This document shows, piece after piece, positions 1 through 34,349 of a DNA stretch of 64,000 bases. The first letter of the stretch is position 1. Each line of letters begins with the position of its first letter. Below the pieces are notes generated by a model. That model was not told where the DNA came from, made no database searches, and worked only from the letters and a program-made list of their open reading frames with translations. The DNA lies in assembly GCF_001677475.2 (NCBI RefSeq), contig NZ_CP015229.1, one strand, 5' to 3'. The translations under genes and the position numbers were made by a program. The DNA comes from Escherichia coli (GTDB lineage: Bacteria; Pseudomonadota; Gammaproteobacteria; Enterobacterales; Enterobacteriaceae).

Positions 1-208
1 CAGTCGAAAAGCCCGCGCCGCCGCGCCCTTTCAGACCAGCGTCTTTTACCTGATTAACGATTTCGTCCGGAGACAGCCCGGTCAGCGCCTTACGCGCGCC
101 TTCGTAACCGTTTTTGCTGCGATATTCGTCCAGCCACACTGGCTGTTTGTCATCGCGCAGACGCCAGGTCAGCGGATGCGTTTCGGGAGTACGGATAATG
201 TTTTTCAT
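1..208 (-). CDS. nuoF: NADH:quinone oxidoreductase subunit F, N-terminal part only (continues past window start)
   Basis: Reverse complement of 1-208 reads ATG AAA AAC ATT ATC CGT ACT CCC GAA ACG... ([32 protein letters not shown]); start at 206-208 overlaps nuoE stop (ATGA); nuo operon context. Confidence 0.85.
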
Positions 209-705
209 TTATACCGCTCCAGCAGTTCAGGGATCGCTTCCGGGGTCAGATGTGCGTGAGTATCCTCATCGATCATCATGTTTGGCCCTTTATCACAGTT
301 CCCCAGGCAGCAAGTTGGCAGCAGCGTAAAGCGACCGTCAAATGTCGTTTGTCCTGGTTTGATGTTCAGCTTTTTCTCGAGCGCCGCCTGAATACCCTGG
401 TAACCGTTGATATGACAGACCACGCTGTCGCAATAACGGATCACATGGCGGCCTACTGGCTGACGGAAGATCTGGCTATAAAACGTTGCCACGCCTTCGA
501 CATCGCTCGCCGGAATACCCAGCACATCGGCGATCGCGTGGATCGCGCCATCCGGCACCCAGCCACGCTGCTTCTGAACGATTTTCAGCGCTTCAATGGA
601 CGCCGCACGCGGGTCTTCGTAGTGGTGCATCTCGTGCTCAATCGCTTCACGCTCTGCCGCACTCAGCTCAAAAGCCTCGGTTTGTGGTTGTTGATTATCG
701 TGCAT
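205..705 (-). CDS. nuoE: NADH:quinone oxidoreductase subunit E (2Fe-2S)
   Basis: 166-aa ORF with Cys motifs ([17 protein letters not shown]) typical of NuoE; operon position between nuoF and nuoCD. Confidence 0.96.
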
Positions 706-707
706 AA

Positions 708-2498
708 TTAGCGGTCCACATCTGACATAACAAAATCGATACTGCCCAGATAAACAATCAGGTCAGACACCAGGCTGCCGCGGATCGCCGCCGGAATTTG
801 CTGCAAATGCGCATAACTCGGCGTACGGATACGGGTGCGATAACTCATGGTGCTACCGTCGCTGGTCAGGTAGTAACTGTTGATCCCCTTGGTCGCCTCA
901 ATCATCTGGAAAGATTCATTGGCTGGCATCACCGGCCCCCACGACACTTGCAGGAAGTGGGTGATCAGGGTTTCGATATGTTGCAGCGTGCGCTCTTTCG
1001 GCGGCGGCGTAGTCAGCGGATGATCCGCTTTGAACGGGCCTTCCGGCATGTTGTTGAGGCACTGCTCAAGAATGCGCAGACTCTGGCGCAGCTCTTCCAC
1101 TTTCAGCATTACGCGGGTGTAGCAGTCAGAAACACCACCACCCACCGGGATTTCAAAGTCGAAGTTTTCATAGCCAGAATACGGACGCGCCTTACGCACG
1201 TCGAAGTCGATCCCGGTGGCTCGCAGGCCCGCGCCAGTGGTGCCCCACTCCAGTGCCTCTTTCGCGCCATAGGCGGCAACGCCCTGGGAACGACCTTTCA
1301 GAATGGTATTTTGCAGCGCCGCTTTCTCGTAAGACGCCAGACGTTTCGGCATCCAGTCGAGGAACTCACGCAGCAGGCGATCCCAGCCGCGCGGCAGGTC
1401 GTGCGCTACGCCGCCAATACGGAACCACGCCGGGTGCATACGAAAACCCGTGATTGCTTCCACCAGATCGTAAATTTTCTGACGATCGGTAAAGGCGAAG
1501 AACACTGGCGTCATCGCGCCGACGTCCTGAATAAAGGTGGAGATATACAGCAGATGGCTGTTGATGCGGAACAGCTCAGAAAGCATTACGCGAATGACGT
1601 TAACGCGATCCGGCACGGTGATCCCGGCCAGTTTCTCTACAGCCAGCACGTAAGGCATTTCGTTAACGCAGCCGCCGAGGTATTCGATACGGTCGGTATA
1701 CGGAATGTAGCTATGCCAGGACTGGCGCTCGCCCATTTTCTCCGCACCACGGTGGTGGTAGCCGATGTCTGGTACGCAGTCGACAATCTCTTCGCCATCG
1801 AGCTGCAAAACGATACGGAAAGCACCGTGCGCCGACGGGTGGTTCGGACCGAGGTTGAGGAACATGAAGTCCTCGTTTTCGGTGCCGCGCTTCATCCCCC
1901 ACTCTTCCGGTTTGAAGGTCAGGGCTTCCATTTCCAGATCCTGTTTGGCTTTGGTCAGCTCAAACGGCGAGAATTCGGTAGCGCGCGCCGGGTAATCTTT
2001 ACGCAGCGGATGACCTTTCCAGGTTTGCGGCATCATGATGCGGCGCAAATTAGGATGACCGTCGAAAGTAATGCCAAACAGATCCCAGGTTTCACGCTCA
2101 TACCAGTTAGCGTTCGGGAACAGTTTGGTGAAGGTCGGTACGTGCAGGTCGTTTTCTGCCAGCGCCACCTTCAGCATGATGTCGCGGTTACGATCGATAG
2201 AAATCAGATGGTAGAAAACGGAAAAATCCGCGGCAGGTAACCCTTCGCGGTGTGTGCGCAGACGTTCGTCCATGCCGTGTAAGTCAAACAGCATGACGTA
2301 AGGTTTCGGCAGTTTCTTTAAGAAATCGCCAACTTCCAGTAATTGTTCACGCTTGATCCACACAACGGGAACCCCGGTGCGAGTCGCCTGAACAGTAAAG
2401 GCATCCGGCCCAAAACGGTTGCGCAGTTCGCCAATCACCGGATCATCAAGATGATCGCGGGTCTGCCAGGCGGGTTCTTGCGCGGTTAAGTCGGTCAT
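708..2498 (-). CDS. nuoC: NADH:quinone oxidoreductase fused subunit C/D
   Basis: 600-aa ORF (708-2510) matching fused NuoCD; likely start is the second ATG (MTDLTAQEP) at 2496-2498, preceded by a GGTGA Shine-Dalgarno-like sequence. Confidence 0.93.
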
Positions 2499-2603
2499 AT
2501 TGTTCACCATTGCAAATGGTCCGTGGTGACTGTCGGCGCAGTAAGCTTCGCGAAATAGATTTAGGAATAAGCGAAGAAAAATCCCTTTGCCGACAGGCGC
2601 AAA

Positions 2604-3266
2604 TTAAATCTCGTCAGGTGTACGCAGGTTGGTTACGGCAATGCGTTCACCGCGCTTGCGTTCGCGCTCTGATTGCATATTGGCGCGATAAACGCCCTGA
2701 TCGCCAACCACCCAGGAGAGCGGACGACGTTCTTTGCCGATAGATTCCTGCAACAGCATCAGTGCCTGCATGTACGCTTCAGGACGCGGCGGGCAGCCCG
2801 GGATATACACATCAACCGGGATGAATTTATCGACGCCCTGCACAACGGAATAAATATCGTACATACCACCAGAGTTGGCACAGGCACCCATTGAGATAAC
2901 CCATTTTGGTTCCAGCATCTGGTCATACAGACGCTGAATAACCGGTGCCATTTTGGTAAAGCAGGTTCCTGCAACCACCATCAGGTCAGCCTGACGCGGC
3001 GAAGCACGCAATACTTCTGCGCCAAAACGCGCCACGTCATGCACCGCGGTAAACGAAGTCACCATCTCAACGTAACAGCAGGAAAGACCGAAGTTATACG
3101 GCCAAATTGAGTTTTTACGACCCCAGTTAACCATGTCATTGAGCTTGCCCATAAACACGTTTTTGTTAACTTCTTGCTCCAGAGGGTCGGTTACGATCTC
3201 CTGCTTTTGCAGGGGGTAACGGTCGTTCTCACCGTTGGGATCTATGCGGGTGAGCGTATAATCCAT
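2604..3266 (-). CDS. nuoB: NADH:quinone oxidoreductase subunit B (4Fe-4S N2)
   Basis: 220-aa ORF with CCxxE...GxCxxxGG...GCPP motif pattern of NuoB. Confidence 0.96.
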
Positions 3267-27400: not shown

Positions 27401-28918
27401 TCATCCTTCGTTATGCATTTCGAGATTTTCCACTTCGTTCTGACGTTGCACTGCTTTGGCGTCGTCATTACGTAAAGTATCGAGGAAATCGAGGTAGCCC
27501 TGATCAACATCTTTGGTGACGTAGACGCCGTTGAACACCGAGCATTCAAACTGCTGGATATCCGGGTTTTCAGCGCGAACGGCGTCGATCAGATCGTTCA
27601 GATCCTGGAAAATCAACCCGTCAGCACCGATGATCTGGCGAATTTCATCTACTTCGCGACCGTGAGCGATCAGTTCCGTAGCGCTCGGCATATCGATACC
27701 GTAAACGTTCGGGAAGCGAATTTCCGGTGCCGCAGAAGCGAGGTACACTTTCTTCGCTCCGGCTTCGCGTGCCATCTCGATAATCTGCTCAGAAGTGGTG
27801 CCACGGACGATGGAGTCGTCGACCAGCAGGACGTTTTTATCGCGGAACTCGGCGCGGTTGGCGTTCAGTTTACGGCGCACGGACTTACGACGCAGCTGCT
27901 GGCCCGGCATGATGAAGGTGCGGCCAACATAGCGGTTTTTAACGAAGCCCTGGCGGTACGGTTTGCCCAGAATACGAGCAATTTCCAGCGCGATATCACA
28001 CGAGGTTTCCGGGATCGGGATCACCACGTCGATATCCAGATCTTCCCATTCACGGGCAATTTTCTCGCCCAGTTTCGTGCCCATATTCACACGCGCGCTG
28101 TAAACGGAAATTTTGTCGATAAACGAGTCCGGACGGGCAAAGTATACATACTCAAACAGGCACGGATTGCTGACCGGATTGTCAGCACATTGACGGGTAA
28201 ACAACTGCCCTTCTTCAGTGATGTAAATCGCTTCGCCAGGCGCGACGTCACGCAGGAAATCAAAGCCTAGTGTATCGAGCGCAACGCTTTCGGAAGCGAC
28301 CATATATTCTGTGCGGTTCTCGTCAATATCACGTTTTCCCAGTACGAGCGGACGAATCCCGTTAGGATCGCGGAAAGCAACCATACCGTGGCCGATAATC
28401 ATCGCCACACAGGCATACGCGCCGCGGATTAAGCGGTTTGTAGCAGCGATGGCGGCGAAAATGTTGTCGGCTTCCAGCGGGTAGTGGCGGAAGTTGTCCA
28501 GTTCGCTGGCAAAGATATTAAGCAGAATTTCCGAGTCGGAAGTGGTGTTGATGTGGCGGCGTTTTTCTTCAAACAGTTTTTTACGCAACTCGTGAGCGTT
28601 GGTCAGATTGCCGTTGTGGGCAAGCGTAATGCCATACGGGGAGTTAACGTAAAACGGCTGCGCTTCAGAGGCGCTGGAGCTGCCAGCCGTAGGGTAACGC
28701 ACATGACCAATGCCCATATTGCCCTGCAAACGCTGCATATGGCGAGCTTCAAATACATCGCTCACCAGCCCGTTCGCTTTACGCAAACGGAAGCAGTTAT
28801 TGGCATCTATGGTGATGATGCCGGCGGCATCCTGACCGCGATGCTGAAGCACCGTTAAGGCATCATAAATCGACTGGTTAACCGGCATAACACCGGCGAT
28901 ACCGACAATACCGCACAT
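27401..28918 (-). CDS. purF: Amidophosphoribosyltransferase
   Basis: 505-aa ORF beginning MCGIVGI (N-terminal nucleophile Cys). Confidence 0.97.
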
Positions 28919-28954
28919 ACGTCTTTTTCCTCGTTAAGCCACATCTCAGAGCAC

Positions 28955-29443
28955 TTACGCTCTGGGCAAGAAACTTGACGAGCTTTGCAGATAATCAAAA
29001 AACCATCTGATGATAAAACTGAACTGCGGGATTAGCTGTGATTTGCTCCAGTCTTCGCTTTTCGACACCCCGGTAAAGGAGTCGAGAAAGAAGAGAATGG
29101 CGGCAACAATCAACACACCGCGCAACGCACCGAAACAGACGCCCAGCACCCGATCGGTGCCTGACAACCCCGTTTTCTCCACCAACTGGCCTATCACGAA
29201 GTTCACGATAGCACCAACAATCAGGGTAGCGATAAACAGTACCGCGATGGCAATCCCATTTCGAACCAGTTCGTCTTCAAAGCCCGTAAACCAGACTGAC
29301 AGGTAAGTGTAGTAATGACTGGCAACAAAGAAAGCACAACCCCATGTCACCAGCGATAACGCTTCACGAACAAAGCCGCGGATCAGGCTAACCAGAGAGG
29401 AAAAAGCAATCACCGCGATTATGGCGTAATCAATCCAGACCAT
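28955..29443 (-). CDS. cvpA: Colicin V production membrane protein
   Basis: 162-aa hydrophobic ORF, first gene of cvpA-purF-ubiX. Confidence 0.93.
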   Translation of the reverse strand: MVWIDYAIIAVIAFSSLVSLIRGFVREALSLVTWGCAFFVASHYYTYLSVWFTGFEDELVRNGIAIAVLFIATLIVGAIVNFVIGQLVEKTGLSGTDRVLGVCFGALRGVLIVAAILFFLDSFTGVSKSEDWSKSQLIPQFSFIIRWFFDYLQSSSSFLPRA

Positions 29444-29500
29444 ATGTGTCCCACGATTTTACGCCCTGTCATCCTGTTCGGGGCGCATTCTAACAGAAAA

Positions 29501-29516
29501 AGAAAACGTTTGCGTA
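29501..29516 (-). promoter_or_regulatory. PurR operator (PUR box) upstream of cvpA-purF
   Basis: Plus strand agaaaacgtttgcgta; reverse complement tACGCAAACGTTTTCT matches the 16-bp PurR consensus; about 60 bp upstream of cvpA start. Confidence 0.75.
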
Positions 29517-29604
29517 GGGATTTCCTTCCCGCGCATCAATAAAAATGGCGCTGAAAAAATATTCAACGCCATCGACTTTTTATGCCTTTGCGGCATCGTG
29601 CAAT

Positions 29605-29695
29605 GCGTGTCGGATGCGGCGTAAACGCCTTATCCGACCTACGGTTCTACCCCTGCGTAGGCCTGATAAGACGCGCCAGCATCGCATCAGGCAAG
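29605..29695. repeat. BIME: two inverted REP elements
   Basis: tgtcggatgcggcgtaaacgccttatccgacctac and gtaggcctgataagacgcgccagcatcgcatcaggc read directly between dedD stop and the cvpA promoter. Confidence 0.85.
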
Positions 29696-29701
29696 ACCGT
29701 A

Positions 29702-30364
29702 TTAATTCGGCGTATAGCCCATTACCACGCCACTTAAGCCAGAAAGTTGCTTCAACTCACCCAGCGAACCTTTCAGCTTATCTTTCGAGGCATCCGGCCC
29801 AACCAGAATACGGGTAATTTTACCCTGCACTGGCGTGGATGGCGACGTATAAACCCGATAACCGGCACCGCGCAGCTTACCGACAATCTCATTCACTTTA
29901 TCGGCATTTTTCAGCGCACCCAGTTGCACAACATAGGCTTTACCCGTCGGTGCAGCTTTTTCTTCCACGACCGGCTTCGGTTCTGGCTTCGGCGCAGGTG
30001 GTGCTTCAACCTTTGGTTTAGGCGGCTCCACCGGTTTCGGCTTCGGTGGGGCGACCGGTGCAGGTTCCGGTTCAAACTCGGTGTTATTGGCTGCAATAGT
30101 GGCCGGATCGAGCGACGGTGCTGCGGCATCACCTGCCCGCACCTCTTCCGCTGCGCCTTCCGGCGGCTGCGTCGGCAACGCCTGGGTGGCGGCTGGCATC
30201 ATATCAGGCTCATCGCGATCGCCCGCTTTTGGAACCAGCGGGATAGCCGCAAACTCATCCTGATAATGTTTTTTCTGCCCGTCCAGAAGCCCTGGAAGTA
30301 CAATCACCCCCAGCGCCACCAGCACGATCGTGCCCACTAACCGATTCTGAAACTTACTTGCCAC
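29702..30364 (-). CDS. dedD: Cell-division protein DedD (SPOR domain)
   Basis: ORF track 29702-30382 begins at a TTG; the in-frame GTG at 30362-30364 gives MASKFQNRLVGTIVLVALG (220 aa); proline-rich linker and C-terminal SPOR-like region; overlaps folC 3' end by 11 nt. Confidence 0.85.
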   Translation of the reverse strand: MASKFQNRLVGTIVLVALGVIVLPGLLDGQKKHYQDEFAAIPLVPKAGDRDEPDMMPAATQALPTQPPEGAAEEVRAGDAAAPSLDPATIAANNTEFEPEPAPVAPPKPKPVEPPKPKVEAPPAPKPEPKPVVEEKAAPTGKAYVVQLGALKNADKVNEIVGKLRGAGYRVYTSPSTPVQGKITRILVGPDASKDKLKGSLGELKQLSGLSGVVMGYTPN

Positions 30365-31655
30365 CGCTTCTCCTCGCGTCAATCACTTCCATGACATGTG
30401 CGACCGTGTGGAAAGAACCACACACCAGCACGGTGTCTTCCGCTTTAGCGTCCGCCATTGCGGCATCCCATGCCTGCGCAACGCTATCAAATGATTTGCC
30501 GTTACCCAAATGCTCAAGCAGTTGTTCTGCCGTGGCACCGCGCGGCCCTTCCAGTGGCGCACAATACCAGTCATCAACCACGCTTTTCAACCAGGCCAGA
30601 GTTCCGGCAATATCTTTATCATGTAGCATACCGATAACCGCCAGCACGCGCCCGTTTTTCGGTAGCGCTTTCATACGCCCGGTGAGATATTCCGCCGCAT
30701 GTGGATTATGCGCGACATCAAAAATAACGCGAGGCGACTCGCTCACAATCTGGAAACGTCCCGGCAAAATTGCGCTGGCAATCCCGTCGCGAATGGCAGT
30801 TTCACTGACCTCCAGCCCGCTGGCACGCAGTGCCGCCAGCGCCGTTGCGGCATTCGGTTGTGGGACAAGCGGCAACGGCAGGTTTTCCAGCGTGCCGTGA
30901 GCATCGCTAAACGCCCAGTCATGATCGGTGACGGAATAGTTCCACTCAACGCCCCGACGTTGTAACAGTGCACCTTTTTCCTGCGCCACATCAGCAATGG
31001 TAGAAGGCATTTCCGGCTCACCGACAATTGCCGGTTTTTCGCTGCGAAAGATGCCTGCTTTCTCGCGACCAATGCTTTCGCGATCTGGCCCCAGCCAGTC
31101 AGTATGATCCAGCGCAATGCTGGTCACCACAGCCACATCAGCATCGACAATATTGGTGGCATCCAGACGACCACCCAGCCCCACTTCCAGAATTACCACA
31201 TCAAGTTGCGCCTGTTTAAACAGCCACAGAGCCGACAACGTGCCGTATTCAAAATAGGTCAGGGAAATATCACCGCGTGCCGATTCAATCTCAGCAAAAG
31301 AGGCGGTGTGAGCCGATTCAATCTCAGCAAAAGAGGCGGTGTGAGCCGATTCCGGCAATTCCTGGCCCTGCACACGAACGCGCTCGGTATAACGCACCAG
31401 ATGAGGCGAACTGTAGACGCCCACTTTGTACCCTGCCACCATCAGAATCGACTCCAGCGTACGGCAGGTGGTGCCTTTGCCATTCGTACCCGCAACGGTA
31501 AACACAAATGGCGCTGGTTTCAGAACGCCAAGACGCGCCGCGACCTGGCTCACGCGCTCAAGGCCGAGATCGATAGTTTTACTGTGCAGGTTTTCCAGAT
31601 AAGAAAGCCACGAAGCCAAAGGCGACGCGGCTTGAGGTGTGCGTTTGATAATCAT
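30354..31655 (-). CDS. folC: Dihydrofolate synthase / folylpolyglutamate synthase, carrying an 11-codon in-frame tandem duplication
   Basis: 433-aa ORF with Mur-ligase P-loop (TVAGTNGKGTT); contains ..SAHTASFAEIESAHTASFAEIES.. from the 33-bp duplication. Confidence 0.92.
   Translation of the reverse strand: MIIKRTPQAASPLASWLSYLENLHSKTIDLGLERVSQVAARLGVLKPAPFVFTVAGTNGKGTTCRTLESILMVAGYKVGVYSSPHLVRYTERVRVQGQELPESAHTASFAEIESAHTASFAEIESARGDISLTYFEYGTLSALWLFKQAQLDVVILEVGLGGRLDATNIVDADVAVVTSIALDHTDWLGPDRESIGREKAGIFRSEKPAIVGEPEMPSTIADVAQEKGALLQRRGVEWNYSVTDHDWAFSDAHGTLENLPLPLVPQPNAATALAALRASGLEVSETAIRDGIASAILPGRFQIVSESPRVIFDVAHNPHAAEYLTGRMKALPKNGRVLAVIGMLHDKDIAGTLAWLKSVVDDWYCAPLEGPRGATAEQLLEHLGNGKSFDSVAQAWDAAMADAKAEDTVLVCGSFHTVAHVMEVIDARRSGGK
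31279..31344. repeat. Perfect 2 x 33-bp tandem duplication inside folC
   Basis: gccgattcaatctcagcaaaagaggcggtgtga at 31279-31311 and again at 31312-31344, followed by an 8-bp partial copy gccgattc at 31345-31352. Confidence 0.95.
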
Positions 31656-31682
31656 GGTATCCGCTGATTCATTACGGGGATA

Positions 31683-31711
31683 ATAGCAAAAGGGCAGAGC
31701 CAGTGGCCCTG
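31683..31711 (-). terminator. Hairpin in accD-folC spacer (possible attenuator)
   Basis: agggcag-agccagtggcc-ctgccct inverted repeat followed on the minus strand by ttttgct. Confidence 0.4.
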
Positions 31712-31724
31712 CCCTTATCAGTTA

Positions 31725-32639
31725 TCAGGCCTCAGGTTCCTGATCCGGTACCGGGGGTACCACTACGCCTTCACGCGGCGCTTCAGGATTCGGCGCTGGC
31801 AGATTCATCAACTTCGCCAGAATGCTCGCCAGTTTCAGGCGCATTTCCGGACGACGGACGATCATGTCGATCGCGCCTTTCTCGATCAGGAATTCACTGC
31901 GCTGGAATCCTGGCGGCAGTTTTTCGCGAACGGTCTGTTCGATAACACGCGGACCGGCAAAGCCGATTAACGCTTTCGGTTCAGCGATGTTGAGATCGCC
32001 CAGCATGGCGAAACTTGCAGAAACACCGCCCATCGTCGGGTCGGTCAGCACGGAGATGTACGGCAAGCCGCGCTCCTGCATTTTTGCCAGTGCCGCAGAG
32101 GTTTTCGCCATCTGCATCAGCGACATCAGTGCTTCCTGCATACGTGCGCCACCAGAGGCGGAGAAGCAGATCAGCGGGCAGTTATCTTCCAGCGCCTGCT
32201 CAACGGCACGCACGAAACGTGCACCCACAACAGACCCCATTGAACCGCCCATAAAGGCGAACTCGAATGCCGCAGCGACAACCGGCATTCCATACAGAGT
32301 GCCTTTCATCACCACCAGCGCATCTTTTTCGCCGGTTTCTTTCTGCGCAGATGCCAGACGGTCTTTATACTTCTTGGAGTCACGAAACTTCAGCACATCT
32401 TTCGGCTCAAGCTCGCTACCCAGCTCCACAAGGCTTCCTTCATCTAACAGGCTATGCAGGCGATTACGCGCTGTCATACGCATGTGATGGTCACACTTCG
32501 GACAGACCTCAAGATTACGTTCCAGCTCAGCGCGGTATAAAACCTGACCGCAGCTATCACACTTAGTCCACACCCCTTCAGGAATGCTCGCCTTGCGGGT
32601 GGGAGTAATGTTGCTTTTAATTCGTTCAATCCAGCTCAT
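31725..32639 (-). CDS. accD: Acetyl-CoA carboxylase carboxyltransferase beta subunit
   Basis: ORF track extends to 32723; the ATG at 32637-32639 gives [10 protein letters not shown] and the Zn-finger CDSCGQ...CPKCDHH; 304 aa. Confidence 0.95.
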
Positions 32640-32794
32640 TAGGGACCTTTCTGTCTGAACCTGGTTCGATGCCAGTTTTATCTTTGGGGACGCATAATGC
32701 CATTTTTGCCCCCAACAGACCATGAATGTTGCACATTAAAACATAACAGCCCGAAACTTTGGATAAAAAAGTGGTCGAACCGCGGAGTTACTTT

Positions 32795-33454
32795 TTATTT
32801 TGCGGCGCGTGCCGCAGCGCGTTTGTGACGGATTATTTCGATGACGCCCGGCAAAATAGAAACCACAATAATCCCGACGATCAGCAGCTTAAGGTTATCC
32901 TGAACCATCGGGATTGTACCGAAGAAATAGCCTGCGTAGGTAAAAAGCAGTACCCACAACAGTGCGCCGATCACGTTATAAGCAGCGAAATGACGGTACG
33001 ACATGTGGCCCATTCCCGCAACAAACGGGGCGAACGTTCTGACGATCGGCACAAAACGGGCGAGAATAATCGTTTTGCCGCCATGTTTCTCATAAAACTG
33101 ATGGGTTTTGTCGAGATAACTGCGACGGAAAATTTTCGAATTGGGATTACTGAATAACTTTTCACCGAACAACCGCCCGATAGTGTAATTGACCGCGTCA
33201 CCCACAATCGCGGCGATCAGCATCAGCACCACCATCATATGGACGTTGAGATCGTTGGTTTCCAGTGATGCCAACGCTCCGGCAACAAACAGCAATGAAT
33301 CACCCGGTAAAAACGGCGTTACCACCAGACCGGTTTCACAGAACAAAATTAAGAACAAAATGGCATAAACCCAGACGCCGTACTCCGCGACCAGCTCTGC
33401 CAGATGCACGTCAATGTGCAGGATAAAATCGATGAGGAAATAAATCAGGTCCAT
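32795..33454 (-). CDS. dedA: DedA-family inner-membrane protein
   Basis: 219-aa polytopic ORF with DedA/SNARE-associated motifs. Confidence 0.92.
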
Positions 33455-33536
33455 ATTTGCCTATGCCTTGTACTCGTCATCTTTCAGGCTGTAACTACGT
33501 TGGCTACAGCCTGAAATGTTCCGAGCATTATTCTTG

Positions 33537-34349
33537 TTAGTCCGCCAGAAATAGCGGGCCCATTGGCGGTTTTGGAAGATCATACCGGTCAGGGTAATCC
33601 ACCGCGACCAGATACAGCCCTTCCGCTTTTGCCGTTGCTGCCGCCAGCGTTCTGTCCTTTGCCGCCAGCAACTCTGCTATCCAGCTCTCCGGCTGGTTGT
33701 GGGCACCGACTTCCATCAGGCTGCCGACAATATTCCTGACCATATGATGTACAAAGGCATTCGCTTTGATATCTACCACCACATAAGGACCGTGACGCGA
33801 GACATTAATATGCATAACGTTGCGCCACGGGGTTCGGGACTGACACTGCACCGCACGGAACGAGGTGAAATCATTCTCGCCCAGCAAGCATTGCGCAGCC
33901 CGATGCATCCGTTCAGCGTCCAGCGGTTCGTAAAAATGGGTTACCCCTTTACTCAGTACCGCCGGGCGCAGCCGATGATTGTAGATGATGTAGCGATAAC
34001 GGCGAGCCGTGGCGCTAAATCGGGCATGAAAATCATCAGGTACAGCTTTAACCCAACGCACGGCGATGTCACCAGGTAAATTCGCATTTACGCCCAACGT
34101 CCACGCAGCGTCTTTGCGCTGCGCGGTCGTTTCGAAATGCACAACCTGCCCGGTGCCGTGTACACCTGCGTCAGTACGCCCGGCGCAGAAGACGGTGATC
34201 GGTTCGTTCGCCACCTGGGAGAGCGCCTTTTCCAGCTTCTCCTGCACACTGCGGACTTCGTTCTGCCGTTGCCAGCCGTAATACTTACTGCCGTCGTACT
34301 CAATGCCCAGCGCAATTTTATAAACTGGCGGTTGTTGCTGGTCGGACAT
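33537..34349 (-). CDS. truA: tRNA pseudouridine(38-40) synthase
   Basis: 270-aa ORF with catalytic RTDAGVHG motif. Confidence 0.95.

Follow-up and report, generated by a model that had tools for sequence, protein, structure and literature searches.

A GTG start codon inside the 3' end of folC and an 11-nt gene overlap at the folC/dedD junction of Escherichia coli

Short same-strand overlaps with translational coupling are most commonly of the ATGA and TAATG types. The folC/dedD pair of Escherichia coli resembles them in that the two genes are co-directional, the start of the downstream gene lies inside the 3' end of the upstream gene, and the Shine-Dalgarno (SD) sequence is part of the upstream coding sequence. 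However, the folC/dedD overlap is 11 nt long, compared with the commoner 4 or 1 nt of the ATGA and TAATG types, and, unlike in such coupled pairs, the evidence for dedD points to SD-driven initiation that is possible without upstream translation. The downstream product, DedD, has been described as bitopic, and in K-12 it localizes to the septum and has a role in constriction.

The junctions secE/nusG and dnaT/dnaC are like folC/dedD in that the downstream gene has its SD sequence in AGR codons at the very 3' end of the gene before it (10.1101/069385). All three pairs behaved alike when recoded: synonymous changes that destroy the SD sequence failed, whereas codons that preserve the ribosome-binding site (RBS) rescued (10.1101/069385). 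The folC AGA/AGG codons at nt 1249 and 1252 were among the recalcitrant cases of this AGR-recoding study; the change of AGGAGA to CGUCGU, predicted to cause a 99% loss of dedD RBS strength, could not be made, and the RBS-preserving CGGCGA gave rescue (10.1101/069385). Within this group dedD stands apart, because the Keio collection counts it among the non-essential genes, yet it behaved as essential in the recoding strain (10.1101/069385), and its start codon is GTG.

We compared the K-12 locus with its counterpart in a 64,000-nt stretch of E. coli DNA (the whole stretch analysed, hereafter the window). In the RefSeq annotation of K-12 MG1655, dedD (b2314, UniProt P09549) occupies 2431022..2431684 (663 nt) and folC (b2315) 2431674..2432942, with an overlap of 11 nt, and the PGAP annotation of strain 90-3040 has the same dedD start and the same overlap. 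The likeness between K-12 and the window extends to the protein, a 61-nt folC/dedD junction that matches base for base, the GTG codon, the SD sequence and the 11-nt overlap. The neighbourhood is also the same: the K-12 order ubiX-purF-cvpA-dedD-folC-accD-dedA recurs in the window, where purF-cvpA-dedD-folC-accD-dedA was read on the minus strand. The differences are six nucleotide substitutions in dedD, all synonymous, so that the protein is identical to K-12 DedD, and, in folC, a 33-nt in-frame duplication with about 50 mostly synonymous substitutions; the junction itself is untouched. The exact 220-aa DedD corresponds to a UniRef entry with DEDD_ECOLI as its representative and is present on at least 1000 contigs. 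A 66-nt junction query was found at 100% identity in 5344 of 5425 complete E. coli genomes, with one match per genome, and a 901-nt query around the dedD start matched 5425 of 5426 complete E. coli genomes.

The dedD coding sequence was located at 29702..30364 on the minus strand, and its translation from 30364 to 29702 comprises 220 codons, with the stop at 29704..29702 and a product beginning (M)ASKFQNRLVGTIVLVALG...; the N-terminal residues of the frame opened by the GTG, obtained by minus-strand translation, are (M)ASKFQNRLVGTIVLVALGVIVLPGLL.... The product matched the NCBIfam equivalog model NF008641 (cell division protein DedD) with 392 bits against a cut-off of 150, and DedD residues 1-220 aligned to profile positions 1-228 of 228, that is, from residue 1 onwards. 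A C-terminal SPOR domain, which binds septal peptidoglycan, was recognized at residues 141-214 (Pfam PF05036, 47.3 bits, cut-off 21), and a hydrophobic stretch, LVGTIVLVALGVIVLPGLL, was read by eye from the translation at residues 9-27. The equivalog match, the SPOR domain and the identity to K-12 assign the gene to the SPOR-domain cell division protein DedD. The antisense open reading frames (ORFs) that cover dedD, such as a plus-strand ORF of 197 aa at 29747..30340, are mechanical ORFs opposite a G+C-rich coding region with Pro/Lys repeats.

On the minus strand, the initiation codon GTG reads 30364..30362 and the folC stop TAA reads 30356..30354, as checked by script on the minus strand of 29600..30500, with the folC stop 8 nt downstream from the start of dedD. 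The overlap spans 30354..30364 on the minus strand, from the dedD GTG through the folC TAA; it joins the first 11 nt of dedD to the last four codons of folC and its stop, and the C-terminal tail in the FolC frame reads ...MEVIDARRSGGK*. An earlier note on this DNA had placed the dedD start at the GTG at 30362-30364, within the last codons of folC, with the folC stop at 30354-30356 and an 11-nt overlap. The overlap and the stop are borne out by the sequence and by the RefSeq K-12 annotation; for the start, the RefSeq K-12 and PGAP annotations, the N-terminal peptides and the cross-species conservation described below all agree. The GTG start and the 11-nt overlap are the standard, experimentally verified K-12 annotation; they were already known and are nothing new.

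The same note had remarked that the ORF track opens at an upstream TTG instead, and the mechanical ORF list does contain this entry: 29702..30382, 226 aa, opening at a TTG 18 nt upstream of the GTG. The TTG (30382..30380) directly follows an in-frame TGA (30385..30383), the pair of codons occupying 30380..30385 on the minus strand; this TTG opens the mechanical ORF but is not the true start of dedD.

The SD sequence of dedD, AGGAGA, was found at 30369..30374 on the minus strand, 4 nt upstream of the GTG, and consists of the folC Arg-Arg codons AGG AGA; its assignment draws on duplex energy, on the published recoding and on conservation. Its duplex with the 16S 3' end was calculated at -8.9 kcal/mol, whereas the best pairing upstream of the TTG reached -4.0 kcal/mol. 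Taken with the recoding in K-12 and the conservation, this places a functional SD sequence in the last codons of folC.

Direct evidence for the start site comes from the K-12 study TRAINSPOTTER, in which rows 497 and 498 of Table S1 (b2314) give the start as GTG at NC_000913:2431682-2431684 under the category 'dbTIS', meaning the database annotation (PMC13245402). The N-terminal peptides recorded for dedD are MASKFQNR (positions 1-8) and ASKFQNR (positions 2-8); in both rows the modification-specific columns are empty and the type of N-terminal evidence is unstated (PMC13245402). The GTG is further flagged for Ribo-RET, INRI and REPARATION elongation evidence (PMC13245402), and the 60-nt context printed in the table is the same as the window sequence. 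Because MASKFQNR has Met at the GTG codon, initiation must have occurred there, since a ribosome coming from the TTG would insert valine at this codon. A six-frame database was searched in the study as well, and upstream starts were reported for other genes, but the dedD rows of Table S1 contain neither an upstream nor a downstream start (PMC13245402). N-terminal proteomics and start-site ribosome profiling, the two checks that the earlier note had named, thus both place the dedD start at the GTG in K-12. The proteomic, Ribo-RET and recoding data are all K-12 data and are carried over to the window strain through the identical junction.

To follow the junction across Gammaproteobacteria, we searched a single genome of each species for the KFQNRLVGT coding pattern, which yielded at least 120 loci from Enterobacterales, Vibrio and Aeromonas, 117 of them usable. 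The first base of the pattern lies 9 nt beyond the putative start codon, so that neither this codon nor its upstream region was selected for, and the 117-locus set covers DedD proteins with the conserved N-terminus that contains KFQNRLVGT. A start codon occupies the position of the E. coli GTG in all 117 listed loci (GTG in 90, ATG in 16 and TTG in 11), which, like the SD sequence in front of the GTG, speaks against a chance arrangement. The overlap with the upstream long ORF (FolC) is exactly 11 nt in 89 of the 117, and in 10 others, from Vibrio and some Serratia, the stop abuts the dedD start with zero gap, so that 99 of the 117 listed loci have either an 11-nt overlap or a zero-nt gap. Gaps of 35-144 nt with the start position kept were seen among the listed loci of Aeromonas and some Yersinia. 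The individual forms also differ in detail: the listed Vibrio junctions read TAA then ATG with zero gap, and those of some Serratia TGA then GTG; Aeromonas combines a TTG start with a gap of 50-144 nt after folC; several Yersinia have gaps of 35-39 nt; and one locus (L114) has an 8-nt overlap.

Within the 89 loci with the 11-nt overlap, the FolC codon that straddles the dedD start has eight forms (GGT, AGT, CGT, AAT, TAT, CAT, GAT and TGT) and encodes G, S, R, N, Y, H, D or C; all eight are N[G/A]T, so that [G/A]TG is kept. The FolC codon just before it is free to vary and takes 24 different forms, whereas the Ala-Ser-Lys codons of DedD determine the last two FolC codons and the TAA. Over 102 distinct junctions, the purine block GGAGA or GGGGA at -11 to -7 is conserved. 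Judged from these alignments, the variation at the junction fits the pattern predicted for selection on the dedD start and SD sequence and not on the FolC tail, and it is the dedD start region, not the function of FolC, that shapes the C-terminal tail of FolC (the last four residues and the TAA).

Taken together, these data make it almost certain that dedD is translated from the GTG at 30364..30362 into the 220-aa DedD, with the AGGAGA sequence directing initiation on a folC-dedD mRNA. Two other start codons have to be weighed against this reading. Of the start-type codons that follow the in-frame TGA, the TTG at 30382..30380 comes first; it opens the entry in the mechanical ORF list, and it is present in sampled Escherichia loci (for example L008 and L038); initiation there would give a 226-aa DedD, MTRGEAVASKF..., with the N-terminus (M)TRGEAVASKFQNR, whether as the principal product or as a second proteoform made regularly. 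However, the SD-like pairing upstream of it is weak, at the -4.0 kcal/mol given above, and AGGAGA, the demonstrated RBS of dedD (10.1101/069385), is located on the 3' side of the TTG, so that the TTG cannot be a start served by this RBS. The comparative data also speak against it: only 11 of the 117 listed loci have a TTG at -18, where E. coli has it, an in-frame upstream start candidate is absent in 75, and in 32 an in-frame stop lies no more than 18 nt upstream of the conserved start. Moreover, N-terminomics, six-frame search included, gave only the GTG for dedD, with Met at that codon (PMC13245402), and both RefSeq and the NF008641 equivalog model begin at the GTG. The upstream TTG as the main start of dedD is thus largely refuted, and production of the 226-aa form from it, in either role, is extremely improbable. 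A start further downstream has in its favour that several in-frame GTG, CTG and ATC codons occur within the first 30 codons of dedD; initiation at one of them, such as the GTG at 30337 (codon 10), would give a shorter DedD lacking the short, presumably cytoplasmic N-terminus. These candidate codons, however, fall inside the hydrophobic, putative membrane segment, and the preceding residues, ASKFQNRL, show strong conservation between orders. Detection of the peptides MASKFQNR and ASKFQNR proves that these preceding residues are synthesized and refutes a downstream codon as the main start, and no downstream start is entered for dedD in the N-terminomics table (PMC13245402), which leaves a downstream start barely conceivable.

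A different question is how ribosomes reach the GTG. Short overlaps and zero gaps are the geometry typical of coupled gene pairs, and translation of dedD could start at the GTG and yet rely for the most part on ribosomes arriving directly from termination on folC, and not on independent loading of 30S subunits. Such strict coupling would be in keeping with the folC stop only 8 nt downstream of the dedD start and with the 11-nt overlap or zero gap kept in 99 of the 117 listed loci; in addition, GTG is a weaker start codon than ATG, for which coupling could compensate. However, dedD has a strong, conserved SD sequence of its own, the destruction of which was not tolerated (10.1101/069385), and the start was flagged by INRI-seq, the templates of which carry only 30 nt upstream of the start (PMC9825163) and therefore do not allow translation of folC. 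The 35-144 nt gaps of Aeromonas and some Yersinia, in which the same start position is used, also argue against a strict dependence on folC termination, as does the local structure, which is not unusually stable. An SD-masking structure that would enforce coupling was considered separately and was ruled out, because the 75-nt region around the dedD start folds more weakly than shuffled controls (MFE -12.7 kcal/mol against a shuffled mean of -15.15, z = +1.09); as the start region shows no excess of structure over shuffled sequence, an upstream ribosome is not needed to unmask it. We consider strict coupling unlikely. For initiation at the GTG directed by AGGAGA, the preferred reading, we propose instead that the 30S subunit would be loaded at the dedD start mainly de novo through the SD sequence, because the INRI-seq templates leave folC untranslatable. 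Ribosomes that complete folC, 8 nt further on, may contribute a degree of re-initiation and help to keep the dedD site open, and the folC-dedD message itself may derive in part from accD read-through past a terminator hairpin.

The earlier note had also described accD-folC-dedD as a compact operon, and this description stands in part. The three genes are co-directional and are separated by a gap of 69 nt and an overlap of 11 nt, a spacing expected within an operon. However, a strong terminator-like hairpin with a 12-bp stem containing 8 G-C pairs was located in the accD-folC gap at 31690..31716 on the minus strand and is followed by the T-rich tail TTTTGCTATTAT; the gap folds at -28.6 kcal/mol (z = -3.4), and a putative terminator thus separates accD from folC. 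According to a review, accD-folC-dedD is a read-through transcript that extends past the accD terminator (PMC7264889), with which the hairpin in the accD-folC gap is consistent. Since a terminator with read-through implies that accD is also a unit of its own, the label 'accD-folC-dedD operon' is acceptable with the qualification of read-through. A promoter consensus scan gave 3 sites, against 3.8 expected from shuffled sequence, and as this is no excess over shuffled sequence, no internal promoter for folC or dedD can be claimed from the sequence. An Rfam scan of 28800..33600 at gathering thresholds gave no family match.

The accD gene showed the same kind of over-extension in the mechanical ORF list as dedD. 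The listed ORF, 31725..32723 on the minus strand, comprises 332 aa from an upstream ATG (MVCWGQ...) and is 28 codons longer than the RefSeq form, which has 304 aa (915 nt) from MSWIERIK and for which the position of this start gives window coordinates of 31725..32639 on the minus strand.

On the other side of dedD, the interval towards cvpA contains two REP-like imperfect palindromes (29609..29638 and 29661..29692), and a terminator-like hairpin lies ahead of cvpA (29573..29544). The 901-nt query, which includes the dedD-cvpA stretch, gave a median of 5 and up to 16 matches per E. coli genome. Because queries with only the junction or only folC match once per genome, the dedD-cvpA stretch (29544..29692) contains a dispersed repeat.

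The folC allele of this strain deserves a separate description. The coding sequence, at 30354..31655 on the minus strand, encodes 433 aa, compared with 422 in K-12, and was identified by its ORF, by NCBIfam NF008101 (850 bits) and by alignment to PDB 1W78, the structure of E. coli FolC. It contains a perfect in-frame tandem duplication of 33 nt (array 31279..31352 on the minus strand, 2.2 copies, 100% match), which adds 11 residues as an extra copy within SAHTASFAEIE; the alignment to 1W78 is full length, with the 11-aa insertion after residue 108. Among 5425 complete E. coli genomes, the maximum identity to the window folC was 97.3%, and the duplication is absent from the best 15 matches listed, which span only 1269 nt. 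The exact 433-aa protein was nonetheless found under four listed E. coli accessions and on 14 contigs, and, being deposited and present on these contigs, it represents a genuine allele, not an artefact. Besides the insertion, the window FolC has only three amino-acid substitutions. The 5' two-thirds of the gene (about 30730..31680) carries about 50 substitutions (roughly 5%) relative to both K-12 and strain 90-3040, and dedD, the junction and accD, which flank this divergent segment, are nearly identical to K-12. Mostly silent divergence between near-K-12 flanks suggests that the 5' two-thirds of folC is a recombined, mosaic segment. In clusters at 90% identity, that of FolC also holds AccD sequences and that of DedD also holds FolC sequences, although these neighbours are unrelated; this mixing looks like a clustering artefact, perhaps arising where ORFs that span the overlaps were fused or mis-called, and is biologically meaningless in this context.

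The overlap also raises a more far-reaching idea, namely that it ties DedD quantitatively to FolC synthesis by termination-reinitiation, with the upstream TTG giving a minor 226-aa proteoform in Escherichia. We regard this combination as very doubtful; if it were true, overlap-mediated reinitiation would link folate metabolism to septal cell-wall synthesis.

For annotation, the locus is an example of how naive longest-ORF calling mis-starts dedD by six codons. What our analysis adds to published knowledge are the figures for conservation of the junction across orders and the observation that dedD shapes the FolC tail. As already published, synonymous changes in the last codons of folC are not neutral, because these codons form the dedD RBS, and this is relevant both to genome recoding and to variants at the 3' end of folC.
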